Both the position numbers and the translations under genes were made by a program. 64,000 nucleotides of DNA, taken from Candidatus Moranbacteria bacterium GW2011_GWE2_35_2-. GTDB taxonomy: Bacteria > Patescibacteriota > Minisyncoccia > Moranbacterales > UBA9337. Location of the stretch: the NCBI GenBank assembly GCA_000990585.1, contig LBQD01000002.1, positions 250,408-314,407 on the forward strand, read 5' to 3'. Below are positions 3,025 through 41,437 of this stretch, in pieces (position 1 is the stretch's first letter; each line of letters begins with the position of its first letter). The notes below the pieces were generated by a model, which worked only from the letters and a program-made list of their open reading frames with translations, did no database searches and was not told the origin of the DNA.

Positions 3025-6000
3025 ATGAGTGATAAAAAAACTTTTAAACTTGGAAGCGGGGATGCCGATAGAAATTTAGAAGAATTAAAAAAAATCCTTC
3101 CGGCAGAAAAAAATGGTTCGGAGATTTTGGAAATGGAAGAAAAAAAAATCGAGCGGATGTATGATGAAATTTCCGAAATTATTGGAAATACTTTTGAAGG
3201 TGAATTCAGAGAAAAAACAAAAAATATTTTCAGAAAAGATGCGGAGAATAAAGTAAAAGAAATAATAGATAATACGGAAAAGTTTGTATGCACAAAGGCG
3301 AAATCGGAAAAATGGTATGAAACGGATTTGTCAGAGGAAGATATGAAAAATAAAGTTAAGGAATGTATAAGAACAAATCTCAACAGTATTTCAGGAATAA
3401 AGAAATCAAAACTTTTTAAGGCTGCTGTTTTGGAGGCTGTTAAGGGACAAAAAAACGAAAAAGAAACGGAAAAAGGGATTAAAGAGGTGGCTGAAAAGGG
3501 AATAAAAAATGAGGATGTGAAAAATGAAGCTAAGGAAAAAGAATGGACAAAAAAAGACAAAGAACGTGAGGCGTTTTTCAAACTGGAAGGTGAATTCGGG
3601 AAAATAGGGACGGGATATGTGTATCAGCCGGAAGCCGGAGAAAAACAAAAAATTAAGATTAAATCTTATAAAATTATTTTTAATAAGAAAGGTGGAATTG
3701 ATTGGAATAATACGGAAGTGTTGTTTTTGCGCAATGGAAAACCAGACAGAAAAACCGTTGAAACTTTTCGCAATATTGTAGGCAAATCGAAAAAAATCGA
3801 AAAAAATCGAAAAGAAATTCCGCAAGAAATTGAAAATGAATTTCATTTATACGAAAAGTGGATTCCTGTCGATCGAAGTAAAGCAGGTTTTCGAATTGCT
3901 GATTATAATAATGGTGATTTTACTCTGGTATTTGATGTAAATAGAAAAAAACAAGACGAAAGAATAAAAAAAGTAAACATTAAAGAATTACGTCAAAGAA
4001 TTAAAGATGGAAAATATCAAATTGAAAGCTTGGTGGCAAGTGATGCAAATCTGAAGGTAAATCCTGGTAAAAAAAATAAGGATATGGATGCGGTTGGCGA
4101 TAGTGAAAATGTTGAAAAAAAGGAATATGACGCGGCGGAGTATTTGCATTTGACGGAAAAAACTTTTGGCGAGGATGGAAAGCAGATGACAAATTTGGAT
4201 TTTGCCAAAGCGGTTTTGTATTCTCAAGTTGGAAATTGGAAAGAATTGGATGCCGGTACTCCCCAAGAACGGGAGATAATCATCAATGACAAAATCCGGA
4301 AATTTTTTGTTGAAATGGGAGTTGCGGTGCATGGGTTAATTAAAAATGTTAAAGATAATGAAGGGCAAAAAGAACTTCAATTAAACGAAAAACCTGATTT
4401 GGACGGAAAAGCAACTCTTTTTCTTTTGAAAAAAGCGGGAATTGAAGTTAAATCTGATTCAAAAAAAGGAAATATTAAATATGTCATCCCTGGAACTCAT
4501 GCAATCGGTAAAATAACATTTGACAGTGGAATGGTGGATGGAGTGGAAATTCGTAAGGAACAAAATGAAAAAGGCGAATGGGTAATTTCCGTTATCGCGG
4601 ATCATCATGGCGATACATCGCCGCGGGACACGTCCGCTGCGGATGTTGCGTATCAAACTTTTTCTAAACTGGGGCTTTTTGAGGAATATTTCCAGAAAGA
4701 CGAAAAAAACAAAGAAAACTTGGAAAAATTGGTGCAGTTTATCAACCGAATCGACAATTTTGATTATCCGAACGGAAAAGAATATTTCGAAAATTATTTT
4801 CAGAATTCTTGGGATACGATTATGGGAGTTTCAAGAATGCTCGGACCGCAAAATTTTTTGGATTTTTTTGCCGATGGGCGCAGCATTGACGATGTTTCTA
4901 GAAGTATTTCTGAAATGCGTTTGTTGAAAAAGGATATGAGGCGGTATGGAATTTTGCAATTAAGGGATGTAAAGGACGCAGAAAAAGTAGATGAAATATT
5001 GAAAAATCAACAAATTGATCCGGAAAAAATCAAAAAAGGTGAGGAACTAACGAAAGAGCAAATGGCTGGTCTTGGCAAGGCGGGATTTCACTATGATAAA
5101 ACCAGAAAAGTGATTAGGGAATATGTAGATGTCAGACAAATGCAAGAAGAAAGAGTCAAGGAATCCCAGGCGGTTTTGATGGAAATGGAAAAAGACGGGC
5201 TTATTATTGAATCGGATCGTTTCGGGAAAATTGCGGTGGATATTGACGGTCGAGTCGAAACCGGTTCGGAGGCGGCGAGGGCTTTTGGGTGCGAAGCTTT
5301 TGTCCTTTGGAATCCGGAATATAATCGTTTTAGTGTCAATACTCTCGGCGGGAAAGAATTGATTGATCTTGTTGGGAATCTTTTGGCAAATAAATATAAT
5401 CAAGGGGTGGAAGTGCGAAAAACAATGTGGATAAAATCTCTTGCGGAAAAGGATGAGCCTTTGAATATAAAACTAGAAGATATTTTGGGTGAACTTACGG
5501 ACGGGAAATTTGCGCCGACAGGGAAATTGAAAGAGTATATTGAAAACGGGGAAAAATGGGGTGAAGAAGTGGAAAAAGGAGATGGAAGGGATGAAGAAAA
5601 AAAGGTGGCGAAGGAGAGCGAGAAAGACAAGGCTGAAGTTGTTTTTGATGAGAAAGGGGAATTGGAATTGGCAGATGGGATTGAAAGGGAGAACGCGAAA
5701 GAGAATATGAATATGGAAACAAGCGCAGAAACGGCAGTGGAAAGACCGGCTTTTGAAGCGGGAAATATGCCTTTGGCGGATTTTGAAAGGATGCAAAGAG
5801 AATTGGATGCCAGTCGGGAATTTTATGTGAAGTATAATCATGAATTCGAAAAGAAAAGGAATAATTTGGAAAAATATTTTGGAAAAATTGAAAATCCAAA
5901 TTTTTTCGGACAGGCGCAAGAAGAGGTGAAGAATTTGAAAGATTTGTATGATAAAAAATCAAAAGAATATGTAAAAGAATATTTGGCGACTATGCGAAAA

Positions 6001-6846
6001 TTTTATGAAGAAAATGATAAATTAAAGGGTAGAGTACTCGAGGAAGCTATGATGGAAGAGGCGAGATATTTGGGGCTTAGGGATGCAATAAAAAGCGAGA
6101 AATTAAAAGATCAAGCAGAGTTGGAAATTGAAAGTGGAAGTAGTGGAAAAATAATTGAAAGTTTTAGAAACACATTCAAAAGCAGATTGAAATCCGCTTG
6201 GGAGGGATTTTGGGGCGGTGCGAAAAGAAGCGCCAGGGTAGCGGAATATGTTGTCAAATCAGAAGCGGATGATATTAAACAAAATATAGGAGCGATAAAT
6301 ATAGGAGCGGAAATGGCAGTGGATGCAATTGAAACGGCAGCATCTTCGACAAAAAGAAATATTCGCAAGGAAATATTGAACAGACGGCAAATTGGAAGAA
6401 AAAGAAATGAAGAAACAAAGAAGGATGAGTCGATAGTAGATGTTGAAATTCCAAGAGAAGAAAGCGGCGCTGATAATTTCGCGGATGTTGAAATAGAGAA
6501 AGAAAGCGAGCCAATAGCGGAAGAAAGCAAGAAAACGGAAATAAAGAAAGAAGATTTGACAGAGAAAATTTTTATTCAAAGGATTATGAATAATGATCGT
6601 TCTGTTTGGAATGAATATAAAGGTAAAAATATAAAAAGTATTATCAAGGGAAGCGATCCAAGAAGGGAAGATAAAAAGAAATTTTTCAGCAATTTGGGGA
6701 AAATTATAGATTTTTCCAGAGAAGATTTAGGCGGGGATTTTATGAATAATGAAATAAAAGTTGGAAATTGGCTTTTGCGAATATTCGGAGAGGCGGAAAG
6801 GAGGAAAAAAGTAAAAGATATATTTGAGATTATTGAAGGTGAATAA
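3025..6846 (+). CDS. Large (1273 aa) highly charged K/E-rich hypothetical protein with no TM segments and predicted coiled-coil regions. It is the first gene of the T4SS-like module.
   Basis: Long uninterrupted ORF. An extended -10 (TGgTATAAT, 3008-3016) lies 8 nt upstream of the ATG with no SD, which suggests a leaderless start. Composition is lysine/glutamate rich. There is an internal short tandem DNA repeat aaatcgaaaa x3 at 3781-3815. Confidence 0.6.
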   Translation: MSDKKTFKLGSGDADRNLEELKKILPAEKNGSEILEMEEKKIERMYDEISEIIGNTFEGEFREKTKNIFRKDAENKVKEIIDNTEKFVCTKAKSEKWYETDLSEEDMKNKVKECIRTNLNSISGIKKSKLFKAAVLEAVKGQKNEKETEKGIKEVAEKGIKNEDVKNEAKEKEWTKKDKEREAFFKLEGEFGKIGTGYVYQPEAGEKQKIKIKSYKIIFNKKGGIDWNNTEVLFLRNGKPDRKTVETFRNIVGKSKKIEKNRKEIPQEIENEFHLYEKWIPVDRSKAGFRIADYNNGDFTLVFDVNRKKQDERIKKVNIKELRQRIKDGKYQIESLVASDANLKVNPGKKNKDMDAVGDSENVEKKEYDAAEYLHLTEKTFGEDGKQMTNLDFAKAVLYSQVGNWKELDAGTPQEREIIINDKIRKFFVEMGVAVHGLIKNVKDNEGQKELQLNEKPDLDGKATLFLLKKAGIEVKSDSKKGNIKYVIPGTHAIGKITFDSGMVDGVEIRKEQNEKGEWVISVIADHHGDTSPRDTSAADVAYQTFSKLGLFEEYFQKDEKNKENLEKLVQFINRIDNFDYPNGKEYFENYFQNSWDTIMGVSRMLGPQNFLDFFADGRSIDDVSRSISEMRLLKKDMRRYGILQLRDVKDAEKVDEILKNQQIDPEKIKKGEELTKEQMAGLGKAGFHYDKTRKVIREYVDVRQMQEERVKESQAVLMEMEKDGLIIESDRFGKIAVDIDGRVETGSEAARAFGCEAFVLWNPEYNRFSVNTLGGKELIDLVGNLLANKYNQGVEVRKTMWIKSLAEKDEPLNIKLEDILGELTDGKFAPTGKLKEYIENGEKWGEEVEKGDGRDEEKKVAKESEKDKAEVVFDEKGELELADGIERENAKENMNMETSAETAVERPAFEAGNMPLADFERMQRELDASREFYVKYNHEFEKKRNNLEKYFGKIENPNFFGQAQEEVKNLKDLYDKKSKEYVKEYLATMRKFYEENDKLKGRVLEEAMMEEARYLGLRDAIKSEKLKDQAELEIESGSSGKIIESFRNTFKSRLKSAWEGFWGGAKRSARVAEYVVKSEADDIKQNIGAINIGAEMAVDAIETAASSTKRNIRKEILNRRQIGRKRNEETKKDESIVDVEIPREESGADNFADVEIEKESEPIAEESKKTEIKKEDLTEKIFIQRIMNNDRSVWNEYKGKNIKSIIKGSDPRREDKKKFFSNLGKIIDFSREDLGGDFMNNEIKVGNWLLRIFGEAERRKKVKDIFEIIEGE

Positions 6847-6896
6847 TGTTTAAGGAGATTTGCGTTTCTGATTATAAAGATTGAGCATTTTAAAAA

Positions 6897-7163
6897 ATGT
6901 ATCCAAAAAATATGAAGTCGTTATCCGAAAGAAAAGAAGAATTGCAAAATGAGTTTGAAACAATCGTTGTTGGACGGTTTTTGAATTTACTCAAAAAAAA
7001 GATGGAATTTGAATCATGGAAAATACTTCAGCAGATGGTTGAAAATGGAGAGAAACCGGAAATAATAAAAAATTTCTTGCAATCAAAAGTTGATAATTAT
7101 CAAGATTTGTTGCAAAATATAGTCAGTGAGATGGAGAGTGATATGAAAAACAATAATTTTTAA
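6897..7163 (+). CDS. Small acidic hypothetical protein (88 aa)
   Basis: ORF between the large protein and the ATPase on the same strand. No recognisable motifs. Confidence 0.3.
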   Translation: MYPKNMKSLSERKEELQNEFETIVVGRFLNLLKKKMEFESWKILQQMVENGEKPEIIKNFLQSKVDNYQDLLQNIVSEMESDMKNNNF

Positions 7164-7176
7164 TTGATATAAGATT

Positions 7177-7614
7177 ATGTCGGAAGAAACAAAGAAAAAT
7201 TTGGAACCGATCGAAGATGGAGATTTGAATTTGGAAAAGAAGTTTGGTGTGGCTGGATCAGAATTGGAAGAATCCAAAGAAAGAATAAACCTTGAAAATT
7301 CTGTCGTCAAAGAAGTTTCCAGCGCGGAAAAAGACAATACTTATTTACAGATGCTTTCTAAAATCAAAACACAAAGCAATGATAATAAAAACGAAGAGGA
7401 AATAAGATCCGATGCGGAGAAGGTTTATGATGCTCAGTCGGATGCTGAAAGTCATGTGAAAAAAATGGTGGATTTGGCAATGAATAAGGGAGTAGTTCAT
7501 GCGGTTAAAGTTGCTCGCCATCTAGAGGATAACTATGTGTTGGATATGTTTCATGATCAACTTTTGACCGATGAATTGCATAGCGCACTGACAGAAAAGG
7601 GTTTGATAAAATAA
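7177..7614 (+). CDS. Small acidic hypothetical protein (145 aa)
   Basis: ORF co-directional in the same cluster, helical and acidic. No recognisable motifs. Confidence 0.35.
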   Translation: MSEETKKNLEPIEDGDLNLEKKFGVAGSELEESKERINLENSVVKEVSSAEKDNTYLQMLSKIKTQSNDNKNEEEIRSDAEKVYDAQSDAESHVKKMVDLAMNKGVVHAVKVARHLEDNYVLDMFHDQLLTDELHSALTEKGLIK

Positions 7615-7749
7615 TAAAATGTAAAAAATCAAATCTCAAAATAACAATCAAAAATAAAAAATAAATGAAAGCGGAAAATGTACAAAATGATTTCGTATTT
7701 ATGCTGTAATTTTTCATTTTGAACTTATTTAAAATAAAACAAAAAACAA

Positions 7750-10233
7750 ATGAATAGTTTTGATTTGAATTTAATTTTTTATCCACTACTTGCCGCCTTG
7801 TCTTTGATGACTTTTGTAACGGGTGTGTTTTTGGTTGTGCGCAGTTTTATTTCTTTTCGCGTTCAAATAAACTATTCTATGAATATGGATTTGGAGGTTA
7901 TTCGAGTGACGAAAAAAAATTATGCCAAAGGAGAATCCATGGATAATGGAGAAAGATGGAAAGAAGAAATCGGAGCAATGGAGCAATTACTTTCAACTCT
8001 GGCGAATATTAATAGAAATAAATCATTTTTTTCCGGAATTTTTTATGATGCTCCTTATATTTCTTTTGAAATTGCCAATCCTTCCGATAGTGAAGAGATA
8101 TTTTTCTATTTGGCAGTTCCTAAAAAATTCAAAGAACGCGTAGAAAAGCAGATTCATAGTTTTTTTCCGGATGCGTCTATAGAAAAGAATCCGGACTATA
8201 CCATATTTTCTCCCGGAAGTTTTACTTCAGCGGCAACTTTAGTATTGAAAAATAAGCATGAACTTCCCATTAAAACTTATGAAAATATGGAAACCGATCC
8301 GCTTAATGAAATTTCCAATGCGCTTAGCAAATTAAATACCAAGGAAGAAGGGGCGGCACTTCAAATAGTGCTCAGTCCTGCCGGGTCAGCATGGAGAGAA
8401 TCCGGTAAAGATATTGCGCATAAGATGCAACAAGGACAGCGACTCAAAGATGTCGGTTCAAATTCTTTTTTGAAAGATGTGAGCAGGGGGGTGGGAAAAG
8501 AAATGCAAAATATTGTTATGAAGCCAACGGGAGTGGTAGCGGATTCGAAAAATATTTTGGATAATGAAAAAGCTTTTCAACTTACTCCCGAGGAGCAAGA
8601 ATTGGTGAAATCTATTGAAAGAAAATCCAACAAGACCGGATTTTTGGTTAATATTCGATTGCTTGCTAGTGCTCGAACGCAGGAAAGAGCGGACGAAATT
8701 TTGGCGCATTTGGAAAATGCTTTTTCTCAATTTGAAAATCCGGAAGTGAATAATTTTAAGATTAAAAAAAGAACCAAGAAAAAGGATATTGCCTATCATT
8801 ATATTTTTCGAAATTTTAATGAGGAAAATTCTTTGATTTTGAATGTGGAAGAAGTGGCAAGTATTTTCCATTTTCCAATTTCCACGACTGAAACGCCTAA
8901 AATAAAATGGCTCAAGTCCGGAGCAGCGGCTCCACCGGTAAATATTCCGCAAGAAGGTGTTCTGCTTGGATATAATGATTATCGCGGGCAGAAAACCGAT
9001 ATTTATTTGGGAGACGGAGATAGAAGAAGGCATCTTTATACAATTGGACAAACCGGTGTCGGAAAATCAAATTTTCTGCAAGAAATGGTCAAACAGGATA
9101 TTAAAAATGGAAAAGGAGTTTGTTATATTGATCCTCACGGTGATGCAGTTGAAGACATACTTTCCTGTATTCCCAAAGAGCGCGCTGAAGATGTGATTAT
9201 TTTTAATCCGGCTGACACAGAGCGTCCTTTCGGTCTTAATATGCTTGAGTATTCTCGACCGGAAGAGAAGACTTTTGTGATCAATGAGATGATTGGAATT
9301 TTTGATAAACTTTATGATTTGAAAGCGACCGGAGGTCCGATGTTTGAACAATATGCCCGTAATGCAATGATGCTTATTATGGAGCATCCGGAGTCAGGAT
9401 CCACATTATTGGAAATTTCCAAGGTTTTGGCAGATGAAGATTTTCGAAAAATGAAATTGGAACACTGTGTTAATCCGGTTGTGCGGGATTTCTGGATCAA
9501 GGAAGCGGAAAAAGCCGGAGGAGAAGCGGCACTGGCGAATATGGTTCCGTATATTACTTCTAAGCTCACTACTTTTGTTGCTAATGATATGATGCGCCCG
9601 ATAATTTCTCAGCAGAAAAGTACTTTGAATTTTCGACAAATTATGGATGACAAAAAAATATTGCTTGTTAATCTTTCTAAAGGAAAATTGGGTGAAATAA
9701 ACAGCCACTTACTTGGAATGGTGATCGTGGGAAAAATTTTAATGGCAGCTCTTTCTCGCGTGGATATGCCGGAAGTTGAAAGAAAAGATTTTTATTTATA
9801 CATTGATGAGTTTCAAAATGTTACCACTGACTCTATCTCTCAAATTTTATCCGAAGCGCGAAAATATAAACTCAATCTTATTATAGCTCATCAATTTATC
9901 GGACAGCTTAGTGAAGAAATTTCCAAAGCAGTTTTTGGAAATGTCGGATCAATATGTGCTTTTCGAGTAGGACCGGAGGATGCGGAATTTTTGGAAAAAC
10001 AATTTGCTCCGGTTTTTTCTTCAAACGATTTGGTAAATGTGGATAATTATAATGCTTTTGCTAAAATTTTGGTCAATAATGAGTCAACTAAGCCGTTCAA
10101 TATTAAAACTTATCCTCCAACTTCCGGTGATCAAGAATTGGCAAACAATTTCAAAGAATTGTCGCGCTTGAAATATGGAAGAGATATTTCTATCATTAAT
10201 AAAGAAATTATAGAAAGAGGAAAAGCAAGATAA
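7750..10233 (+). CDS. Type IV secretion-type P-loop ATPase (TraG/VirD4/VirB4 superfamily; coupling-protein-like) with an N-terminal TM anchor
   Basis: N-terminal TM helix (IFYPLLAALSLMTFVTGVFLVV). Walker A is HLYTIGQTGVGKSNF and Walker B is YLYIDEFQNV. The downstream motif KLNLIIAHQFIGQLSEEISKAVFGNVGS resembles the TraG/VirD4/VirB4 QxxxQL...G motif. Confidence 0.6.
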   Translation: MNSFDLNLIFYPLLAALSLMTFVTGVFLVVRSFISFRVQINYSMNMDLEVIRVTKKNYAKGESMDNGERWKEEIGAMEQLLSTLANINRNKSFFSGIFYDAPYISFEIANPSDSEEIFFYLAVPKKFKERVEKQIHSFFPDASIEKNPDYTIFSPGSFTSAATLVLKNKHELPIKTYENMETDPLNEISNALSKLNTKEEGAALQIVLSPAGSAWRESGKDIAHKMQQGQRLKDVGSNSFLKDVSRGVGKEMQNIVMKPTGVVADSKNILDNEKAFQLTPEEQELVKSIERKSNKTGFLVNIRLLASARTQERADEILAHLENAFSQFENPEVNNFKIKKRTKKKDIAYHYIFRNFNEENSLILNVEEVASIFHFPISTTETPKIKWLKSGAAAPPVNIPQEGVLLGYNDYRGQKTDIYLGDGDRRRHLYTIGQTGVGKSNFLQEMVKQDIKNGKGVCYIDPHGDAVEDILSCIPKERAEDVIIFNPADTERPFGLNMLEYSRPEEKTFVINEMIGIFDKLYDLKATGGPMFEQYARNAMMLIMEHPESGSTLLEISKVLADEDFRKMKLEHCVNPVVRDFWIKEAEKAGGEAALANMVPYITSKLTTFVANDMMRPIISQQKSTLNFRQIMDDKKILLVNLSKGKLGEINSHLLGMVIVGKILMAALSRVDMPEVERKDFYLYIDEFQNVTTDSISQILSEARKYKLNLIIAHQFIGQLSEEISKAVFGNVGSICAFRVGPEDAEFLEKQFAPVFSSNDLVNVDNYNAFAKILVNNESTKPFNIKTYPPTSGDQELANNFKELSRLKYGRDISIINKEIIERGKAR

Positions 10234-10275
10234 ATTTTTTAATTAACCTAAATTTCAATTACTAATTTTTAAAAT

Positions 10276-10689
10276 ATGAAAAAAAATATTTTTAACAGGA
10301 AAAGTAATGTTTATATGATTATTATTTTTTCTTTTGTAATCGCATTTGGTTTTTTCCAGTCTGTTTTGGCGCAAAGTTATGTACCGATGGAAAAATTACC
10401 CGGTTCTCCAGGAGCGGCAAATCTCAAGGATTATGTGTTGGCGATTTATAATTTTGCTATTTGGACAGTTGGAATCGCGGCATTTTTTATGATTTCAATT
10501 GGTGGTTTTTGGTATTTTACGGCAGCAGGAAATACGTCCAAGACTGCTAAGGCAAAAGAAATAATCGGTGATGCGCTTTTGGGGGTAATAGTTTCTATGA
10601 TAGCATGGTTGATTTTATATGTGATCAATCCTGATTTGGTGAACGTTAATTTAAGTAGTCTTGGAGAAGGATTGAGGATTAGTCAATAA
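10276..10689 (+). CDS. TrbC/VirB2-like T4SS pilin (signal peptide plus two hydrophobic helices)
   Basis: 137 aa. N-terminal signal peptide ending ..SVLAQS, followed by two long hydrophobic segments separated by a short polar loop (AAGNTSKTAKAKE). This is the classic VirB2/TrbC topology, and it lies immediately downstream of the T4SS-type ATPase. Confidence 0.45.
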   Translation: MKKNIFNRKSNVYMIIIFSFVIAFGFFQSVLAQSYVPMEKLPGSPGAANLKDYVLAIYNFAIWTVGIAAFFMISIGGFWYFTAAGNTSKTAKAKEIIGDALLGVIVSMIAWLILYVINPDLVNVNLSSLGEGLRISQ

Positions 10690-10701
10690 ATATTTTTAAT
10701 A

Positions 10702-11718
10702 ATGAATAAAAAAAATCAGATAATTTGCGTCGGTTCTTCTTGTAAAGACACTTTTTTTCCTACAGGTGATGGTGTTGTTGTTGATACCCCGAGCGATTTG
10801 TTGGCGCAAAAAAAAATTTATTTTGAATTGGGGGCTAAATATAAAGTCGATCAAATATGTGAAGCGCCGGGAGGTTGCGCAGCTAATGTGGCTCAGGGAT
10901 TGGCACGGTTGGAAATTGACGCAGGAGCGCTAACTAAAATTGGCGGAGATTTAGTCGGAAAATGGATAGTGGATGAATTAAAAAAGGAAAACGTGGATGT
11001 TGAATTTGTGCAAATTGACAAAAAATGCCGAACTGACTTGTCATCAATTATTGTTGATACAAAAACCAAAGATCATATTATTTTTTGGAATCGTGATTCA
11101 AATGAAAAGCTGGAAATTTCTTCGGAAAAAATTCCTTCAGCGGAATGGATTTTTGTAAGTGCACTTAATGGAAATTGGCGAGTTCATTTGGATATAATAA
11201 TTGAAATGGCGAAGAAAAAAGATATGAAAATAGCTTTGAATCCCGGACAAAAAAATATTCATGATGACGCGAAAAAAGTTTTAGAAGCAATAAAAAATTC
11301 TCAAATTTTGATTTTGAATAAAGACGAAGCAATTGAAATAATTTCCGAGTCCGGACATTGGAAAGGAGGTAATATTAATTTAAACAATGAGAAATTTTTA
11401 TTGAAAGAATTTTTAAATTTGGGGTGTAGTGCCGTTGTTATCACGGACGGAAATCGCGGAGCGTGGGGATCTGATGGTAAGAGTAATTATTTTTGTCCGG
11501 GAATTAAGGTGGATACCGTGGATACTCTTGGAGCGGGAGATGCATTTACAAGTGGATTTTTGGCGGCGTATTTGAAAGAAAAGGATATTCAAGAGTGTCT
11601 TCGTTGGGGGGCGGCAAATGGAAGTAATGTTGCGAAATTTTATGGAGCGAAAAATGGACTTTTGAGAATAAATGAGATTGAAGCGAGAATTGAGAATATA
11701 GAAATTAAAATTTTTTAA
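10702..11718 (+). CDS. PfkB-family carbohydrate/nucleoside kinase (ribokinase-like)
   Basis: C-terminal DTLGAGDAFTSGF anion-hole motif and a GG dipeptide region typical of the ribokinase/PfkB fold. Confidence 0.7.
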   Translation: MNKKNQIICVGSSCKDTFFPTGDGVVVDTPSDLLAQKKIYFELGAKYKVDQICEAPGGCAANVAQGLARLEIDAGALTKIGGDLVGKWIVDELKKENVDVEFVQIDKKCRTDLSSIIVDTKTKDHIIFWNRDSNEKLEISSEKIPSAEWIFVSALNGNWRVHLDIIIEMAKKKDMKIALNPGQKNIHDDAKKVLEAIKNSQILILNKDEAIEIISESGHWKGGNINLNNEKFLLKEFLNLGCSAVVITDGNRGAWGSDGKSNYFCPGIKVDTVDTLGAGDAFTSGFLAAYLKEKDIQECLRWGAANGSNVAKFYGAKNGLLRINEIEARIENIEIKIF

Positions 11719-11725
11719 AAGAGAT

Positions 11726-12991
11726 ATGGGAATTTTTTCAAAAATATTTAGTGGAGGAAAGAAACTAGATTATGTTCTAGCTTTGGATATTGGAACAGAA
11801 GTGGTTAAAGCGCTTGTTTTTAGAATTGATAAAGATGGTAAAAAAGGTGTTGTGATTGGCGTAGGCAGAGCGCGTCAGAAAATGGGAAATATGCAAAGCG
11901 GAGCAATTTCTGATATCTCGGGTGTTATTGTTTCTGCTCGTGAAGCGATTGAAATTGCCAAAGAAAAATCCGGAGTAAAGAAAATCAAGAACGCGGTGGT
12001 GGGTATCGCCGGAGAATTAGTGAAAGGAATAACAACAACTGTTCATTATGAAAGAGTACGACCGGAAGTAAAAATAGATTTGCCGGAATTGAAAAATATT
12101 ATTGAAAAAGTTCAGCAAAAAGCTTATGAGAGGATTCGAAAACAATTAGCATGGGAAACTAATCAAGAGGGAATTGATGTGAAGTTAATTAATGCAGCGA
12201 TTTCCAATGTAAGTATTGATGGTTATCAAATAACTAATCCGCTTGGATTTCAAGGTCGGGATGTTTCCATTAGCGTGTTTAATGCTTATGCTCCGATGAT
12301 TCATTTGGGTGCAGTGGAAACTATTGCTGATGAGTTGGGTATTGCCTTGATTAGTATTGTTGCTGAGCCGTATGCTGTGGCGCGCAGTGTTGGTTATGAA
12401 GGAGAATTTGATTTTGGGGCAATCTTTATTGATATTGGAGGTGGAACGACAGATATTGCTGTGGTGCGCAATGGAGGATTGGAAGGAACAAAGATGTTTG
12501 CCTTGGGAGGGCGTTCTTTCACTAAACGATTAGCAAGGGAGGCGGGTATTAGTTTTGAGGAAGCCGAGGATTTGAAAATAAAATATTCCGAAAGAAAATT
12601 AGACAAAGGTACGACTGCAAAAATTGAGGAAATATTGCAGAATGATTGCGACGTTTGGCTTAGTGGAGTAGAGCTTTCATTAGAAGAATTTGCTGAGACA
12701 GATCTTTTGCCGTCGAGAATCCTTCTTTGCGGTGGAGGCAGCGCACTTCCCGGAATTAAGAAGGCCTTAGCATCATCAGGATGGACAAAAAAATTATCTT
12801 TCAGTAAAACTCCGGAAATAAATTTCTTGCAACCAAGAGATGTGGTAGATATAATAGACAGTACGCAAGAACTTTTTAGTCCGCAGGATGTTACTCCAAT
12901 GGGATTGGCGACTCTAGTTTTGGATTTTGTGAACGAAGAGAGGGTGATGGCAGGAATTCTCAAAAGAGCAATGAATAATATTGATAAATAA
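11726..12991 (+). CDS. Actin-fold ATPase of the FtsA/PilM family (most likely cell division protein FtsA)
   Basis: Phosphate-1 motif LALDIGTEVVKALV and phosphate-2/adenosine motif IFIDIGGGTTDIAVV. 421 aa with a C-terminal amphipathic tail, consistent with FtsA. Confidence 0.6.
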   Translation: MGIFSKIFSGGKKLDYVLALDIGTEVVKALVFRIDKDGKKGVVIGVGRARQKMGNMQSGAISDISGVIVSAREAIEIAKEKSGVKKIKNAVVGIAGELVKGITTTVHYERVRPEVKIDLPELKNIIEKVQQKAYERIRKQLAWETNQEGIDVKLINAAISNVSIDGYQITNPLGFQGRDVSISVFNAYAPMIHLGAVETIADELGIALISIVAEPYAVARSVGYEGEFDFGAIFIDIGGGTTDIAVVRNGGLEGTKMFALGGRSFTKRLAREAGISFEEAEDLKIKYSERKLDKGTTAKIEEILQNDCDVWLSGVELSLEEFAETDLLPSRILLCGGGSALPGIKKALASSGWTKKLSFSKTPEINFLQPRDVVDIIDSTQELFSPQDVTPMGLATLVLDFVNEERVMAGILKRAMNNIDK

Positions 12992-13013
12992 TTTTTATAA
13001 ATTAAAATAGTAT

Positions 13014-14873
13014 ATGCATAAAACATTTTATATTGATATTGATGAAGAAGTGACATCTATCATTGATCGTTTGAGAAAATCTTCCGTTAAGGAAAATATT
13101 TTGGTTATTCCACAACGCTCCTTGATTTTACAAAGCATAGTTAATTTGAAATTGCTTGAAAAAGAGGCAACAAAGAATAAAAAACAGATAATGATTATAA
13201 CACAAGATTCTCACGGACAAGCTTTGGTTGAAAAAGCGGGAATTTTAGTGCAATCGTCGATGGAGGGTATTGAAGAAGACAATGTTGTTAGAGAAGATTT
13301 TGAGCCGAAAATAAACGATGCGAACATTAAAGATAGGCTATTAGAAAATATGGAAAAGAAGGAAAAATTAAAAAGACTGGGGAGCGGTGAATTTTTTGAC
13401 ATATCTTCAAAGAAAAAAACAAACAATCTAAGAGCAGAAGTAACCGAACAGGTAGATATAAAAAAAACTGATATTTTTCCAGAGATGGCAGAATATAATC
13501 TTGCTACCGAATTTAAGGCTAAAAAAGATAATTCAACGAGAGATAATATTGAAAAGTTGGATTTAAAAAGAGAAAGGGAATTGGAAAAGTTATTTGGAAA
13601 ATCCAGTATAAAAAAGAAGGAAGAAATTTCGGAAAATGTGTCAAAGATAAATAATTTTGATTATGGTAATCAAAATTCGGATAATTATAGTAAAAAAGTT
13701 TCCGGAAGGGTAAAGAAAATTTTTTCTTTATTGGGAATTGTTTGTTTTTTTTCCATTTTGGCGGTTGCCGCTTATCTATTTTTGCCGAAGGTTGATATTG
13801 AAGTTTATCCTCAAACAAATATCAAGGAGGATGATCTTGAAATAGTAGGAGTTTCTAACGGTAATTTTGGTTTGGACGGAAAAAAATTAATTGTTTCTAG
13901 TCGGGTTGTAGAGGCGGATTCTTCTGTTGTTTTTTCTTTTGACGCAACCGGACAGAAAGATGTTTCAGATCAAAAAGCGCATGGAACGGTTGTTGTGTAT
14001 AATGAATATAGTGCTGCTTCCCAACAATTAGTGGCGACAACAAGATTGCTTACGGAAGATGGAAAACTTTTTCGCTTAGTTGCGGGTGTTGTTGTTCCGG
14101 GAATTTCTGAAATTGAAGGAAAGATTGAACCCGGGAAAATAGAAGTAGAAGTGGTAGCTGATCAATCGGGCGAAGAATATAATATAGAAGAAAGTAAATT
14201 TTCTATCATCGGATTTAAGGGCGGGCCAAAATACGAAAAGATACATGCTCGTTCAATAGCTAAAATGATTGGCGGAGGTGGTAATGGAGAAAAGTTAAGT
14301 TCGATTTCCGAAGAAGATGTTAAATTAGCAAAACAAAAAACAGAGGAAAGTGCCCGTGGTCAATTGATGGAAAAAATAAAAGGAAAATTGGGCGAAGGAG
14401 AAATTATATTGGATGCTTCAATAAAGGAAGATATTGTCAGCTCTGCGGCTTCGCCGGGAGAAGGGATGGTGGCAGATAGCTTTAATTATCAAATTGATTT
14501 AAAAGCTAAAGCAGTTGTAGTTTCGCAGAAAAAAATCGATGAATTGGTTGCGGAATATTTTTCAAATAAAATTGATTCAGAAATGATTATTGCCCAAAAT
14601 AAAATTGAATACGGAAATATTGATGTGGATTTTGAAAAAGACAGTCTTATTGCTCGTGTTCATGCCGAATCGCTTTTTCAGGCAAAAATAGATGAAGAAA
14701 AATTAAAAGTGGAAATTTTAGGAAAAAGTACCAATCATTTGAAAGAAATTATTGATGAAGATACTAAGATAAAAAAGATAGAGATGATTTTTTATCCGGA
14801 TTTTTTACGAGGAAGAATTCCTTCGCAAGGTAAATGGGTGAATCTGGAGATAATCAAGCCGACTTTCGAATAA
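13014..14873 (+). CDS. Bitopic membrane protein (619 aa), K/E-rich cytoplasmic N-domain, single TM, large extracytoplasmic domain; function unknown
   Basis: Single hydrophobic helix IFSLLGIVCFFSILAVAAYLFL near residue 240. No catalytic motifs recognised. Immediately follows the FtsA-like gene. Confidence 0.45.
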   Translation: MHKTFYIDIDEEVTSIIDRLRKSSVKENILVIPQRSLILQSIVNLKLLEKEATKNKKQIMIITQDSHGQALVEKAGILVQSSMEGIEEDNVVREDFEPKINDANIKDRLLENMEKKEKLKRLGSGEFFDISSKKKTNNLRAEVTEQVDIKKTDIFPEMAEYNLATEFKAKKDNSTRDNIEKLDLKRERELEKLFGKSSIKKKEEISENVSKINNFDYGNQNSDNYSKKVSGRVKKIFSLLGIVCFFSILAVAAYLFLPKVDIEVYPQTNIKEDDLEIVGVSNGNFGLDGKKLIVSSRVVEADSSVVFSFDATGQKDVSDQKAHGTVVVYNEYSAASQQLVATTRLLTEDGKLFRLVAGVVVPGISEIEGKIEPGKIEVEVVADQSGEEYNIEESKFSIIGFKGGPKYEKIHARSIAKMIGGGGNGEKLSSISEEDVKLAKQKTEESARGQLMEKIKGKLGEGEIILDASIKEDIVSSAASPGEGMVADSFNYQIDLKAKAVVVSQKKIDELVAEYFSNKIDSEMIIAQNKIEYGNIDVDFEKDSLIARVHAESLFQAKIDEEKLKVEILGKSTNHLKEIIDEDTKIKKIEMIFYPDFLRGRIPSQGKWVNLEIIKPTFE

Positions 14874-25874: not shown

Positions 25875-26537
25875 TCACAAATTGAAAAATTCTTCAATTT
25901 TTTCTTGGTGTAAAAGTTTTTCCGCGGTTATAATCTCGATGTTTTTTTGGACATTGAAAAGTTCGGAAATAAATAGGATTTCATCTTCGCATTCATAAGG
26001 ATAAACCCATACGCTTTTTTGTATTTGGTAGAATCCCAATTCTTTGATTTTTCTTCTCAATGCTTCGCGCGCTTGGTGGTATCTTTTCGGTTTGGCTGGA
26101 ATATCAAAAATCAAGATTCGCCATTTTTTGTCCCATTTTTTCGGTTTTGCGATATCTAAAAGATCAAAGGAAAATTCTTTGATTCTTTTTTGTCCCTTAT
26201 TGGTTAAGCGTACTTCGTATTTTTCTTTTCCTATTTTAATAATCTCAATTAATTTTCTTTGTTTCAAGTTATTGAAAGCGGTTTGTATTTGTTTCTTGGA
26301 ATATTTCTTGTGTTTTTTGAATTTTCCCATTCCGGAAAGTATATTCGGAGCGGCTGCCGCGACAACGAAAAGGGGAGCGGCGAGAACGGCAGCCAGTAAA
26401 AATTTTCCGGCAGTGGCAGTAATGCCGTCATTATACAAAAATTTATCTTCAATTGTCTTTTTGATGTTAATTACTTCTTTTCTCTTTTTTGTTTGTTTTT
26501 TTTGCATGATTATATTTTTTGGTTTCCGATAATGCAA
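25875..26537 (-). CDS. Membrane-anchored PaaX-family-like transcriptional regulator (wHTH plus PaaX C-terminal domain)
   Basis: N-terminal Ala-rich hydrophobic helix. wHTH-like region EVRLTNKGQKRI. C-terminal WDKKWRILIFDIPAKPKRYHQAREALRRKIKELGFYQIQKSVWVYP matches the PaaX C-terminal pattern (W..YDIP...R..LR..L..LGFG.L..SVW..P). The track start is a TTG; an ATG 10 codons in (near 26507) is more likely. Confidence 0.5.
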   Translation of the reverse strand: MHYRKPKNIIMQKKQTKKRKEVINIKKTIEDKFLYNDGITATAGKFLLAAVLAAPLFVVAAAAPNILSGMGKFKKHKKYSKKQIQTAFNNLKQRKLIEIIKIGKEKYEVRLTNKGQKRIKEFSFDLLDIAKPKKWDKKWRILIFDIPAKPKRYHQAREALRRKIKELGFYQIQKSVWVYPYECEDEILFISELFNVQKNIEIITAEKLLHQEKIEEFFNL

Positions 26538-27743: not shown

Positions 27744-28706
27744 TTAGATTATTTTCCATCCGCTTGCATCTTCTACTATTTTTCCTTTTATTTCAAATCC
27801 GCTGGCGAGCTTGTGTCCGCCACCACCAAAAAGATGGGCGATTTCAGAAACGTCAATGCCCTTATATTGTTCACTGCGAAGACTTCCTTTAATGGTTTTA
27901 TTATCTCGCTGAGACAGGACAAGTGAAAAGCTGGTGCCTGGAACGGCATTAAGAATTGAAGCGATTTGCGCAATATCATCAGTTGAAGCTTCACATTGTT
28001 TTATATCTTCTTGTGTGAGGACGGTGACAATCATTTTGTTTTTCGGATTGATGCGAGCTTTTTCAAAAGCTCTTCCCCAAAGCTTAAGAGTGGTTATTTT
28101 TTTGTTGGAGAATACTGAGCCGACTATTTTGGAAACGGAGGCTCCTTTTTTAATAAGTTTGGAGGCGATTTCCATTACGTCAGCGGTAGTATTGGAGTGC
28201 TGAAGATTTCCTGTATCGCTGATTATGCCTAATAGTAAACAATTGGCAATTTTTAAATTTGTTTCGGCATTTATTGAAACTAAAAATTTATAAATAATTT
28301 CGCAAACAGAAGAATATTGCGAATCAACAATCCGCAAGTCGGCTGTCAGTGTGATATCCGGATGATGGTCGATAATAATGGAAACTTGTTTAGGATTAAG
28401 TAGCGGATATATTTTTTCAAATCCGCGTTCAACGCTATCACAGGCGATTATGGAATCGTATGAATTTATATTCAGATTATCCGGATAATTGAATTTTCCC
28501 GGAACTATTTCTGCTAGATATTCTGGAAACGGGTCAAAGCAGGCGATATCGATATGCTTTCCCAGTTTTTTCAGATATTCTTGTAATGCCAAAACAGATC
28601 CAACGGTATCTCCGTCCGGACGACTATGAGCAAAAAGAAGTATTCGTGAAGAATTCTCGATTATATATTGAAGAGTTTTAAATTCAGTGCTGAATTCATT
28701 TTTCAT
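27744..28706 (-). CDS. nrnA: DHH-family phosphoesterase NrnA-like (oligoribonuclease/pAp phosphatase)
   Basis: Motifs HSRPDGDTVGS, IIIDHHP and GGGGH (DHHA1). Confidence 0.8.
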   Translation of the reverse strand: MKNEFSTEFKTLQYIIENSSRILLFAHSRPDGDTVGSVLALQEYLKKLGKHIDIACFDPFPEYLAEIVPGKFNYPDNLNINSYDSIIACDSVERGFEKIYPLLNPKQVSIIIDHHPDITLTADLRIVDSQYSSVCEIIYKFLVSINAETNLKIANCLLLGIISDTGNLQHSNTTADVMEIASKLIKKGASVSKIVGSVFSNKKITTLKLWGRAFEKARINPKNKMIVTVLTQEDIKQCEASTDDIAQIASILNAVPGTSFSLVLSQRDNKTIKGSLRSEQYKGIDVSEIAHLFGGGGHKLASGFEIKGKIVEDASGWKII

Positions 28707-39733: not shown

Positions 39734-41437
39734 ATGAATTGGAAAGTTTTTCCGAAAATCGAAATAGAAAAAAAAGAATTATACAATCTCCATCCGGTCG
39801 CGCTGGAGATTCTTTTTCGTCGCGGAATTAAGACACAAAAAGAAATTGAAAGTTTTTTGCATCCGGATTATGAGAATGATTTGAGCGATCCATTGGAGTT
39901 TTTCGGAATGAAAAAGGTCGTGGAGAGAATTGGTCAGGCGCGTGAAAAAAAGGAGAAAGTTTTGATTTTTGGAGATTATGACGCGGATGGTATTACGGCT
40001 TCTCTTGTTTTGACGCAGGTGTTGAGTTGGCTGGGAGTCGAGGCGCAGTCATATATTCCCAATAAAGAGCTGGAAGGATATGGAATGAATATGGCGGCGG
40101 TGGAGAAATTTTCCGAGGAAGGAATCAATTTGATTATTACGGTTGATTGCGGAATAACAAGTATCGCCGAAGTGGCGCGTGCCAAGGAGTTGGGAATGGA
40201 TGTGATTATCACCGATCATCATCACGTTCCGGAGAATATTCCTTTGGCGTATGCAGTGATAAATCCGAAGTTGAAGGATAATGCCTGTGATTGCGGAGAT
40301 TTGGCGGGAGTCGGGGTAGCTTTCAAATTGGCGCAAGCGCTTTGCGGGAAATTTTTACCGGAAAAAGAGGATCAACTTAAATGGCTTTTGGATTTGGTGG
40401 CGATCGGAACAGTGGCGGATTGCGTTTCTTTGGTAGGAGAAAACCGAACATTGGTAAAATATGGACTGGTGGTTCTTTCTAAAACTAGAAGAGTGGGAAT
40501 TTTGGAACTTTTCAAAGTTGGAAGAATCCAAATTGATGAAGATAATTTTCCGGATACGCAAAAAATTTCTTTTCAAATTGCTCCGCGAATTAATGCGGCT
40601 GGGAGGATGGATCATGCTAAGATTGCTTTTGATCTTCTTTTGGAAAATGATCCGGTACGCGCGCGTGAGATGGCATTGGAAGTGGAAGCGCACAATCAAA
40701 ATCGGCAGAAAATAACCAAACAGGTGGTAGATGAAGCAATGGCGGAAGCGGAAGAAAAATTTAAAAATAAAAAAATTATTTTTTCCAGAAGTGAGCATTT
40801 TCCAGTGGGAATCGTGGGACTGGCGGCAGGTAGAGTGGCGAACAAATACAACCGTCCGATGGGGATTTTTAGGAAAGAAAAGGATGTTAGTATTGGATCT
40901 TTTCGGAGTATTCCCTTGGTTGATATTATTGAAGTTATCGGAGAATGCGGTGAATTTTTGGAAAAATTCGGCGGACATAGCCAGGCGGCGGGAGTAACGG
41001 TGAAAAATGAAAATTTCGATAAATTTTGCGCTAAGATGGACAGGGTGATCGAAAAAAAATTGGAAGGTGTGGATATTTCTCTGGAGATAAAAATTGATGC
41101 CGAGCTTTCCGCTGAGGATATTGGATTTAAATTGTCTGATGAAATCAGAAGGATGGAACCTTTTGGGCAAGGAAATTCTGAGCCGGTTTTTGCGATTCGA
41201 AATATGATTGTGCAGGATTTGAAATGGGTAGGCAACGGAGAAAAACATTTGAAGCTATTCCTTCGTCCCGATGACGACTCGCCAAGAATTTTTGAAGCAA
41301 TCGGCTTTGGTATGCCGGACGAATTCCGCACTGTCAAACAAGGAGACAAAGCGGATGTCGCGTTCAATCTCCAACAAGACCAATGGAACGGAAGCAAAAA
41401 ACTCCAATTGAGAATCATTGATTTGAAAGTTCTGTAA
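39734..41437 (+). CDS. recJ: Single-stranded-DNA-specific exonuclease RecJ
   Basis: DHH motifs IFGDYDADGITAS, ITDHHH and DHHA1 GGH..AAG. Confidence 0.85.
   Translation: MNWKVFPKIEIEKKELYNLHPVALEILFRRGIKTQKEIESFLHPDYENDLSDPLEFFGMKKVVERIGQAREKKEKVLIFGDYDADGITASLVLTQVLSWLGVEAQSYIPNKELEGYGMNMAAVEKFSEEGINLIITVDCGITSIAEVARAKELGMDVIITDHHHVPENIPLAYAVINPKLKDNACDCGDLAGVGVAFKLAQALCGKFLPEKEDQLKWLLDLVAIGTVADCVSLVGENRTLVKYGLVVLSKTRRVGILELFKVGRIQIDEDNFPDTQKISFQIAPRINAAGRMDHAKIAFDLLLENDPVRAREMALEVEAHNQNRQKITKQVVDEAMAEAEEKFKNKKIIFSRSEHFPVGIVGLAAGRVANKYNRPMGIFRKEKDVSIGSFRSIPLVDIIEVIGECGEFLEKFGGHSQAAGVTVKNENFDKFCAKMDRVIEKKLEGVDISLEIKIDAELSAEDIGFKLSDEIRRMEPFGQGNSEPVFAIRNMIVQDLKWVGNGEKHLKLFLRPDDDSPRIFEAIGFGMPDEFRTVKQGDKADVAFNLQQDQWNGSKKLQLRIIDLKVL

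Follow-up and report, generated by a model that had tools for sequence, protein, structure and literature searches.

Type IV coupling proteins (T4CPs) such as VirD4, TrwB (R388), and DotL/IcmO carry Walker A and B motifs in a TrwB-type nucleotide-binding domain with an all-alpha region and are membrane anchored, canonically with two transmembrane (TM) helices. DotL works with the small acidic adaptors IcmS, IcmW, and LvgA. For Patescibacteria, the portions of a 2025 census drawn on here (Quiñonero-Coronel et al. 2025, Microb Genom 11:001409, PMC12102498) report 5,713 T4CP homologues (in 2,918 genomes), of which only 148 lie near virB4; most are chromosomal, lack a relaxase, and are far from virB4. 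The same portions describe Southlakia epibionticum as having essential type IV secretion system (T4SS) genes and a non-essential T4CP homologue, and the authors kept open the exaptation of patescibacterial T4CPs. The S. epibionticum T4SS has no recognisable coupling and relaxase proteins (Wang et al. 2023). KKP71086.1, the ATPase considered here, appears in the extract of Table S3 of the census as a typical T4CP (t4cp1 profile, 93.6% coverage, not near virB4) and is thus a known T4CP homologue, catalogued in 2025.

The window (the whole 64-kb stretch of DNA analysed) is part of the chromosome of Candidatus Moranbacteria GW2011_GWE2_35_2- (Patescibacteria/CPR), an ultra-small bacterium from groundwater. 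The GC content is about 36% and the genome size is given as 923 kb in the extract of Table S1 (PMC12102498), in keeping with the reduced, AT-rich genome guessed at in the preliminary description. All five co-directional ORFs of that description were present at the coordinates it gave, separated in order by 50, 13, 135, and 42 nt. More than 4,700 homologues were counted for the ATPase, and the small ORFs recur in 57–78 of the related loci, marking these as real genes and not chance ORFs. The operon is flanked by housekeeping genes (PMT glycosyltransferases, FtsQ, RmuC, and rpoBC), no integrase or relaxase was found near it, and its GC content equals that of its surroundings; these sequence features show it to be chromosomal and vertically inherited. 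Synteny in related Moranbacteria loci (n = 81; 80 for tblastn and for ATPase genomes) revealed a conserved unit comprising, in order, variable large charged protein(s), a DUF5663 protein, an acidic 145-aa protein, and the ATPase. The locus is therefore a conserved operon around a coupling-type motor, not a complete secretion machine, and homologues of VirB4, VirB3, VirB6, VirB8, and VirB1 were absent from the module and the whole 64-kb window. Of the compact T4SS-like module proposed initially, the ATPase branch and the pilin type were borne out but the self-contained five-gene unit was not.

The ATPase is an 827-aa membrane-anchored P-loop motor (positions 7750–10233, + strand; 100% match to KKP71086.1). 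Canonical T4CPs have two TM helices at the N terminus, whereas this protein has a single hydrophobic helix (aa 5–36) followed by a DUF8128 domain of ~330 aa (about aa 45–375) and then a T4CP-type nucleotide-binding domain (about aa 413–750). The membrane anchor and the expected motifs were all located in the sequence: Walker A GQTGVGKS (aa 433–440, nt 9046–9069), Walker B FYLYIDEFQ (aa 681–689, nt 9790–9816), and AHQFIGQL (aa 713–720, nt 9886–9909). Pfam searches returned TrwB_AAD_bind (1e-8) and TraG-D_C, and the TIGR TraD model also matched. When the family profile was compared with the PDB, TrwB (8e-8) and DotL (5.8e-5) preceded HerA (3.7e-3) and neither VirB4 nor FtsK was matched; the VirB4 sequence models CagE_TrbE_VirB, AAA_10, and P-loop_TraG likewise gave no match in the ATPase. 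With a single sequence as query, the match to T4CPs reached only E 1e-3, and very little identity extends beyond the P-loop. The early placement in the VirD4/VirB4 branch was upheld, with T4CPs scoring best in HMM searches and not FtsK or HerA, and the profile matches assign the ATPase to the T4CP (VirD4/TrwB) lineage with an additional N-terminal DUF8128 domain.

Relatives on mobile DNA include DUF87-annotated coupling-type ATPases of Gram-positive and archaeal conjugative plasmids (for example B. subtilis plasmid NZ_CP032854, WP_121549396.1), homologous over residues ~90–820 at 22–30% identity. They adjoin Replic_Relax relaxases together with TcpC, TcpE, and a separate VirB4 (AAA_10), the relaxase-adjoining full-length homologues being those of one B. 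subtilis plasmid and one metagenomic mobile element. From this gene order, the ATPase family is seen to fill the coupling-protein slot beside the relaxase in Gram-positive conjugative plasmids. In contrast, the window gene is chromosomal, its operon has no relaxase or Dtr genes, and it is flanked by the DUF5663, 145-aa, and housekeeping genes. Relatives on plasmids and mobile elements could also be accommodated if the motor were a defence-type HerA/mad8-like ATPase or the operon a decayed integrated conjugative element, and the PADLOC mad8 model (50.7 bits, nucleotide-binding domain), Pfam DUF87 (the HerA central domain; 27.1 bits), and the weak HerA matches point the same way. Either is very improbable: profile searches rank T4CPs above HerA, the neighbourhood contains no methylase, nuclease partner, integrase, or relaxase and lacks the seven remaining MADS genes, and position and sequence are kept across 80 genomes, within housekeeping flanks and at the GC content of the surroundings.

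The predicted fold gave a different emphasis from the sequence. In Foldseek searches with the ATPase model, the best 14 matches were all TrwK, and the modelled fold resembles VirB4, a likeness carried mainly by the N-terminal domain (aligned ranges were not given) in a model of poor quality (mean pLDDT of 50.6, falling below 50 in the C-terminal half, with TM-scores near 0.2). The ATPase differs from VirB4/TrwK in matching neither the VirB4 sequence models nor VirB4 in the PDB, and it is not beside VirB3 or TrsD. The true VirB4 of this genome is separate: the Table S3 extract (PMC12102498) numbers VirB4, TrsD, and VirB3 as #334, #335, and #336 and the T4CP as #546, placing that core 212 genes from the ATPase.

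No protein accompanies the ATPase more constantly than the acidic, soluble 145-aa protein KKP71084.1 (positions 7177–7614, + strand; pI 4.85, no hydrophobic segment), which has a conserved C-terminal helical region of ~55 aa (…KGVVHAVKVARH..DNY.LD.FHD…). Searches by tblastn place its gene directly upstream of the ATPase gene in 78 of 80 loci (clustering does so in 66), and in locus L087 a gap of 4 nt separates an upstream homologue (E 6e-17) from an ATPase with 42% identity. Searches of Pfam, PDB, and PADLOC gave no match, so the statement that the small proteins have no family held for this protein. It did not hold for the soluble 88-aa protein (positions 6897–7163, + strand; pI 5.2, no hydrophobic segment). 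Although the window copy has no match to PF18908 (DUF5663) itself, 13 of 16 orthologues do (best E 4.5e-9), and by this orthology the protein is a divergent, N-terminally shortened DUF5663 member. Its orthologue cluster, found in 57 of 81 loci, invariably lies downstream of the large protein(s) and upstream of the 145-aa gene, and in locus L086 a related protein (E 1.5e-8) is encoded ahead of an ATPase with 48% identity. Among the ATPases of 80 Moranbacteria genomes, identity is 64–96%. Evolutionary rates within the operon diverge sharply: relative to the window copies, median identity falls from 68% (ATPase) through 46% (145-aa protein) to 28% (88-aa protein), a contrast consistent with a motor under constraint whose adaptors or substrates evolve fast.

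The small acidic genes are preceded by genes for one or two large proteins that evolve fast and are highly charged. In the window, this variable slot holds a soluble K/E-rich protein of 1273 aa, KKP71082.1 (positions 3025–6846, + strand; 18.9% K+R, 20.2% D+E). Conservation among its relatives is confined to aa 383–846; aa 1–382 and 847–1273 evolve fast. Pfam and NCBIfam, including the Pfam DHH and DHHA1 models, gave no family for this protein, as the preliminary description had it, but motif and fold analysis revealed a domain where none had been detectable: aa 383–846 (nt 4171–5562, + strand) are a divergent DHH/DHHA1 phosphoesterase core. The DxD, D, and DHH motifs are intact as DLDGK (motif I, nt 4396–4410), FDSG (motif II, nt 4519–4530), and DHHGD (motif III, nt 4600–4614). 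Compared with the DHH/DHHA1 phosphoesterases NrnA, RecJ/GAN, GdpP, PggH, and PAP phosphatase, the core has an FGC-type motif in place of the GGGH motif IV, a helical insert of ~100 aa, and a setting within a 1273-aa K/E-rich protein. Identity of the core to the window copy is 28–35% in all relatives except the closest, L001. DHH-bearing homologues were found in only 9 of 81 loci, which removes the giant protein from the conserved module in which it had been included. In about 66 loci the upstream slot is occupied by a different set of large proteins (c6), to which the C-terminal part of the giant protein is weakly similar (BLASTP E 2e-6), although the c6 HMM did not match it.

A nuclease-type DHH domain in the same operon is one reason to consider a T4SS-independent translocase, in which an exapted DUF8128–T4CP motor and its two small partners, by themselves or together with other machinery, would act on nucleic acid. 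Possible roles include the handling of DNA or nucleotides, transport of chromosomes or DNA in division, and scavenging, and in some lineages the DHH/DHHA1 protein would be an associated nuclease or nanoRNase. By ancestry T4CPs translocate DNA, this one is a single chromosomal gene that is very strongly conserved, and distant family members have unrelated housekeeping genes as neighbours and no T4SS genes close by. [quoted passage not shown] However, the DHH protein occurs in only 9 of 81 loci and so is not integral, ComEC, RecJ, and NrnA are encoded separately in this genome, and neither a DNA-binding partner nor a relaxase was found. The nearby FtsQ and FtsA-like genes could be taken to suggest a link to division, but in so compact a genome such neighbours are ordinary. 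The exapted translocase, its DHH component included, is considered a tentative alternative, less probable than a role in secretion.

The last of the five genes encodes a 137-aa prepilin (positions 10276–10689, + strand) with hydrophobic segments at aa 9–34, 53–83, and 95–123, the first being a signal peptide that ends around LAQS (aa 31–34). This topology, a signal peptide and two hydrophobic helices, is that of patescibacterial PF18895 (T4SS_pilin) pilins, and all seven pilin orthologues matched PF18895 (best E 3.1e-9), so the initial identification of a VirB2-like pilin is credible on sequence grounds. At 25.1 bits, the window copy fell just short of the Pfam threshold (26.6) and for this reason was missed in the 2025 census, whose Table S3 extract contains no VirB2 for this genome, the window pilin included. 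In a sister Moranbacteria genome, the same extract (PMC12102498) places PF18895 arrays on either side of virB4 and the T4CP far off, suggesting that pilins normally sit at virB4. The S. epibionticum pilins form an essential array, whereas the window pilin is a single gene that is not beside virB4. It follows the ATPase gene in 7 of 81 loci (plus locus L090), always in the order pilin, PfkB, FtsA-like gene, and 619-aa ORF. The pilin is outside the conserved unit, contrary to the original grouping, and is an operon neighbour in this sub-lineage only; conserved co-occurrence was lacking for the pilin and the giant protein alone among the five.

The position of the pilin bears on whether the five genes suffice by themselves as a compact secretion or pilus apparatus derived from conjugation, in which the ATPase would drive assembly of the adjacent pilin. 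The genes are co-directional and closely spaced, the gaps contain no terminator-like sites, the genome has no further catalogued VirB2, the layout is kept in a sub-clade with ATPases 73–100% identical, and the ATPase is VirB4-like in architecture, canonical VirB4 being the pilin-extracting ATPase. Nevertheless, the pilin adjoins the ATPase in few loci and travels with its own neighbours, 55 loci have an unrelated convergent gene downstream of the ATPase, the motor is T4CP-like and not VirB4-like by sequence, VirB3, VirB6, and VirB8 are absent, and the true VirB4/TrsD/VirB3 set is elsewhere in the genome. A self-sufficient apparatus is accordingly improbable and already largely refuted by synteny.

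The best explanation of the locus as a whole, held with about even confidence, is that a T4CP motor with small adaptors recruits substrates for a distant patescibacterial T4SS. The ATPase would act as a hexameric motor at the cytoplasmic membrane, where the DUF8128 domain, modelled with a VirB4-N-terminal-domain-like fold, may dock it onto VirB3/VirB8-like membrane partners. The two small acidic proteins may be adaptor or chaperone subunits comparable to IcmS/IcmW/LvgA for DotL, as their size, charge, and gene order and the analogy suggest. The T4SS for which the complex of motor and small proteins would recruit substrates is encoded far away, and VirB2-like pilins, of which the adjacent gene offers an example, would form its surface filament. 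Position and variability make the upstream large charged proteins, including the DHH phosphoesterase, candidate substrates; nucleic acid is the other candidate. The locus represents a known kind of component, an orphan patescibacterial T4CP accompanied by a VirB2-like pilin, with some undescribed partners and an inferred function. The consulted passages of PMC12102498, its Table S3 extract, and supplement keywords do not mention the DUF8128/VirB4-like domain, either partner, or the DHH-core proteins. Relative to those parts of the 2025 catalogue, the locus adds to this T4CP a DUF8128/VirB4-like N-terminal domain, the conserved DUF5663 and 145-aa partners, and variable upstream large proteins with a DHH core.

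All five open reading frames of the preliminary description are present on the forward strand with short gaps between them. They encode a giant charged protein (1273 aa; 3025-6846), two small acidic proteins (88 aa, 6897-7163; 145 aa, 7177-7614), a membrane-anchored ATPase (827 aa; 7750-10233), and a small pilin (137 aa; 10276-10689), and their composition and patterns of hydrophobic segments are as first reported. The ATPase is 100% identical to UR69_C0002G0253 (KKP71086.1), and its gene lies on a 788-kb contig of Candidatus Moranbacteria bacterium GW2011_GWE2_35_2-, whose 923-kb genome is assigned to Patescibacteria/CPR, class Paceibacteria. Pfam searches of the flanks identified a PMT_2 glycosyltransferase gene upstream, in divergent orientation, and genes for a PfkB kinase, an FtsA-like protein, a 619-aa protein, rpoB, rpoC, and a LexA-like gene downstream. 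The GC content at the locus is that of its surroundings, and promoter/terminator, Rfam, and tRNA scans of the region gave nothing informative. Domains of VirB4, VirB3, VirB6, VirB8, VirB1, relaxases, or integrases were not found by Pfam in any of the large ORFs up to ~59 kb of the window. The locus is not the compact type IV secretion system (T4SS) that had been proposed; it is best viewed as the operon of an orphan coupling ATPase that, in this sub-lineage, abuts a stand-alone VirB2-like pilin gene. Elsewhere in the window, ComEC appears to be encoded by two overlapping ORFs (52198-53661 and 53651-54511, +), the first containing DUF4131 and Competence domains and the second a metallo-beta-lactamase domain; this division may be genuine or due to a frameshift. 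A DNA-uptake channel is thus encoded separately in the genome. Two annotations are unusual for a CPR genome: a PaaX central Cas2-like domain (25875-26537, -) and a weak match to the catalytic domain of carboxysome-shell carbonic anhydrase (56716-57741, -).

The ATPase carries a Walker A motif at residues 433-440 and a Walker B motif at residues 681-689. In Pfam, TrwB_AAD_bind matched residues 425-736 (E = 1e-8, 34.8 bits) and TraG-D_C scored 23.1 bits, both above cut-off, and a DUF87 match was limited to residues 426-488; NCBIfam TraD matches were weak. The single sequence retrieved TrwB from the PDB (1e-3), with both Walker regions aligned. A family profile built from 30 sequences ranked TrwB (8e-8) and DotL (6e-5) above HerA (4e-3) and returned neither VirB4 nor FtsK from the PDB. 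Because of this ranking, the ATPase is assigned by sequence to the lineage of type IV coupling proteins (T4CPs; VirD4/TrwB/TraD/TraG). It had been proposed as a member of the VirD4/VirB4 superfamily. T4CP models match, but the Pfam models CagE_TrbE_VirB, AAA_10, and P-loop_TraG do not, and an hhalign comparison of the ATPase profile with a plasmid VirB4 was not significant (probability 2.6%). The true VirB4 of the genome is a separate gene (KKP70874.1). An FtsK/HerA identity, raised earlier as the alternative, is not supported, with no FtsK_SpoIIIE match in Pfam and HerA ranked below the T4CPs.

The architecture of the ATPase is not that of a canonical T4CP. Canonical members possess two transmembrane helices directly before the motor, whereas the ATPase is anchored by one hydrophobic helix (residues 5-36), followed by a soluble domain of ~330 aa; precomputed annotation assigns the N-terminal part to PF26449 (DUF8128). 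Modelling with AlphaFold from 12 close homologues gave a structure of low quality as a whole (pLDDT 50.6), although residues ~10-375 were reasonably well modelled, and the best 14 Foldseek matches of the model were all TrwK chains (E values 4e-8 to 3e-4, with TM-scores of only ~0.2). From these matches, we infer that DUF8128 probably folds like the N-terminal domain of VirB4, which would give the ATPase a VirB4-like layout combined with a T4CP-like motor. The motor domain is also matched by the PADLOC model for mad8, a component of MADS defence, at 50.7 bits, which exceeds the score of the Pfam T4CP model. This cross-match could be taken to indicate a role in defence, but the other mad genes are absent and the housekeeping context of the locus is conserved, so that a MADS identity was rejected and a defence-type function is unlikely. 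The match suggests that mad8 itself belongs to the T4CP/HerA-like group of motors.

An exhaustive HMMER search returned 22,396 cluster representatives homologous to the ATPase at E ≤1e-3 and 5,837 at ≤1e-30, many of which align across residues ~100-823. The taxonomic breadth of the family beyond CPR rests on a tblastn search of plasmids, in which full-length homologues with 22-30% identity were found on Bacillus, Streptomyces, Clostridium, haloarchaeal, and Sulfolobus plasmids. On a 24.7-kb plasmid of B. subtilis, the homologue lies directly upstream of a Replic_Relax relaxase gene, followed by TcpC, TcpE, and a separate VirB4 (AAA_10), and an ATPase-relaxase pair also occurs in a metagenomic mobile element. 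Within the conjugation systems of monoderms, this family thus holds the position of the coupling protein, which agrees with the published conclusion that patescibacterial T4SSs derive from MPF-FATA systems (PMC12102498). The linkage of T4CPs to relaxase or DNA-processing genes seen in these relatives is absent at the ATPase of the window, with no relaxase among the large ORFs scanned with Pfam up to ~59 kb. The plasmid relatives might indicate that the locus is the remnant of a mobile element; this identity was rejected, and a mobile-element reading is unlikely, given the conserved housekeeping context. Some members of the family (P0171, P0174, P0191-P0193, and P0179, the last encoded at 8001-14021 of the related locus L083) carry C-terminal extensions of 900-1200 aa, giving proteins of 1,700-2,000 aa.

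Gene order is shared by 80 Moranbacteria loci and runs from PMT-type glycosyltransferases on the opposite strand through one or two large charged proteins to the 88-aa protein, the 145-aa protein, and the ATPase. The ATPase gene is present in all of these, the 88-aa gene in 57, and the 145-aa gene in 66 by clustering or 78 by tblastn. PF18908 (DUF5663) was matched by 13 of 16 positional orthologues of the 88-aa protein (best E = 4.5e-9). The copy in the window has no match itself, yet it aligns with the orthologues and falls short of them by ~15 N-terminal residues; it is probably a shortened, divergent DUF5663 member. The 145-aa family has no match in Pfam or the PDB, and its C-terminal ~55 residues are strongly conserved. 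Profiles of both small families gave nothing significant against the PDB. Relative to the window copies, median identity falls from 68% (ATPase) through 46% (145-aa protein) to 28% (88-aa protein). Both small families recur beside ATPases that are only 42-48% identical (loci L087 and L086), and the partnership is demonstrated down to about that level; around the most divergent ATPases examined (L081 and L083), their HMMs revealed no homology. The conserved three-gene core consists of a DUF5663 protein, a 145-aa acidic protein, and a DUF8128-T4CP. Four loci (L002, L008, L039, and L070) have a small PD-(D/E)XK_3 nuclease-family ORF (~125-137 aa) inserted within the operon, which lies next to the 145-aa gene on the side of either the 88-aa gene or the ATPase.

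The giant protein had been described as free of detectable domains. It is conserved only at residues 383-846 among eight homologues from the loci and two database relatives; a search of a set of 5.8 billion proteins with this core gave two matches and missed the giant itself. The core has a DHH fold with a DHHA1-like lobe behind it and retains metal-binding motifs I-III (DxD, D, DHH), whereas motif IV reads A-F-G-C in place of GGGH. Neither the DHH nor the DHHA1 model of Pfam matches the giant, and the only match of the core profile in the PDB was PggH (E = 0.3). On the strength of these motifs, the giant contains a divergent DHH/DHHA1 phosphoesterase that escapes Pfam and is probably active, contrary to the earlier description. 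Canonical DHH/DHHA1 proteins are also encoded in the window, namely an NrnA-like protein (27744-28706, -) and RecJ with an OB domain (39734-41437, +), so the core of the giant is an additional, highly divergent paralogue; an hhalign comparison with the NrnA-like protein was not significant (probability 2%). The DHH protein is present in only 9 of the 81 loci, and the upstream slot, which is variable, more often holds other large charged proteins, among which the c6 cluster can be recognised in 66 loci. The C-terminal part of the giant weakly resembles c6 in BLAST, although the c6 HMM does not match it, and locus L079 shows a DHH-c6 fusion. The giant may be a fusion of this kind.

The identification of the smallest product as a VirB2-like pilin was upheld. 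It possesses the expected topology of a signal peptide and two hydrophobic helices, and all seven of its orthologues match PF18895 (T4SS_pilin; best E = 3.1e-9). A search with the pilin gave eight close matches, five of which have PF18895 in precomputed annotation. With 25.1 bits, the window copy itself stays below the cut-off (26.6), and this narrow shortfall explains its absence from the 2025 census of patescibacterial T4SSs. A holin identity was rejected (Phage_holin_3_2, only E = 3e-3). The pilin gene adjoins the ATPase in 7 of 81 loci, where the ATPases are 73-100% identical, and in the further locus L090. In each of these it heads a block continuing with PfkB, the FtsA-like gene, and the 619-aa ORF. 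The 619-aa protein of the window (13014-14873, +) matches no family and has a single hydrophobic segment near its centre (residues 232-262). In 55 loci in which the pilin is not adjacent, the ATPase is followed by an unrelated, convergent gene for a protein of ~850 aa, with no ORF resembling a pilin within 10 kb. That protein (L008, 12966-15653, -, and 54 other loci) has no Pfam match and one hydrophobic segment, and no homologue is detectable within the 64-kb window. The adjacency of pilin and ATPase is lineage-specific.

Patescibacteria rely on other microbes. Only one of their species is genetically tractable, and it requires an unusual, pilus-bearing T4SS. VirB2-like PF18895 pilins are a hallmark of these systems (PMC12102498; Wang et al. 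2023). Quiñonero-Coronel et al. 2025 counted 5,713 VirD4-type T4CP homologues in 2,918 Patescibacteria genomes, only 148 of them near virB4 (PMC12102498). The ATPase is entered in their Table S3 as T4CP #546, "not near virB4"; the same table lists for this genome VirB4 (#334), TrsD (#335), VirB3 (#336 and #206), and a second T4CP (#833), and contains no VirB2 for GW2011_GWE2_35_2-. The VirB4/TrsD/VirB3 genes, of which VirB3 is KKP70876.1, lie 212 CDS from the ATPase. PF18895 genes flank virB4 in a sister Moranbacteria genome, with the T4CP far off (PMC12102498); the window pilin is not near virB4 in its own genome. The main rival to a role in a coupling complex is that the ATPase is an exapted translocase working independently of any T4SS. 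The general lack of linkage between T4CP homologues and virB4 favours it, as does the published finding that the T4CP homologue of S. epibionticum is non-essential; the authors of that work allow for exaptation (PMC12102498).

With moderate confidence, and by analogy, the ATPase and the two small proteins are interpreted as a type IV coupling complex. DotL uses the small adaptors IcmS, IcmW, and LvgA. The two small acidic proteins may likewise be adaptors or chaperones for the membrane motor, the complex would serve the distantly encoded VirB4 system, and the variable large charged proteins would be candidate substrates. The complete scheme, in which a complex of DUF8128-T4CP, DUF5663, and 145-aa proteins recruits the hypervariable large charged proteins encoded just upstream, including a DHH/DHHA1 nuclease or phosphodiesterase, for delivery into host cells by the distant pilus-bearing T4SS, is speculative and considered improbable as a whole.

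Both the ATPase and the pilin are of known types, and the former had already been counted as an orphan T4CP (PMC12102498). New, though modest, are the partner genes, the DHH core that had gone unnoticed, and the proposed N-terminal domain of VirB4 type; these details can serve to frame hypotheses. The conserved three-gene core provides a working hypothesis for two DUFs, and the pilin illustrates a VirB2-like protein that escapes threshold-based censuses. If the ATPase and its partners do form a coupling complex, the variable proteins encoded upstream could be tested as candidate effectors. If effectors are indeed delivered in this way, the locus would offer, for the CPR T4SS needed in epibiotic growth, the first candidates both for a platform that recruits effectors and for the effectors themselves.
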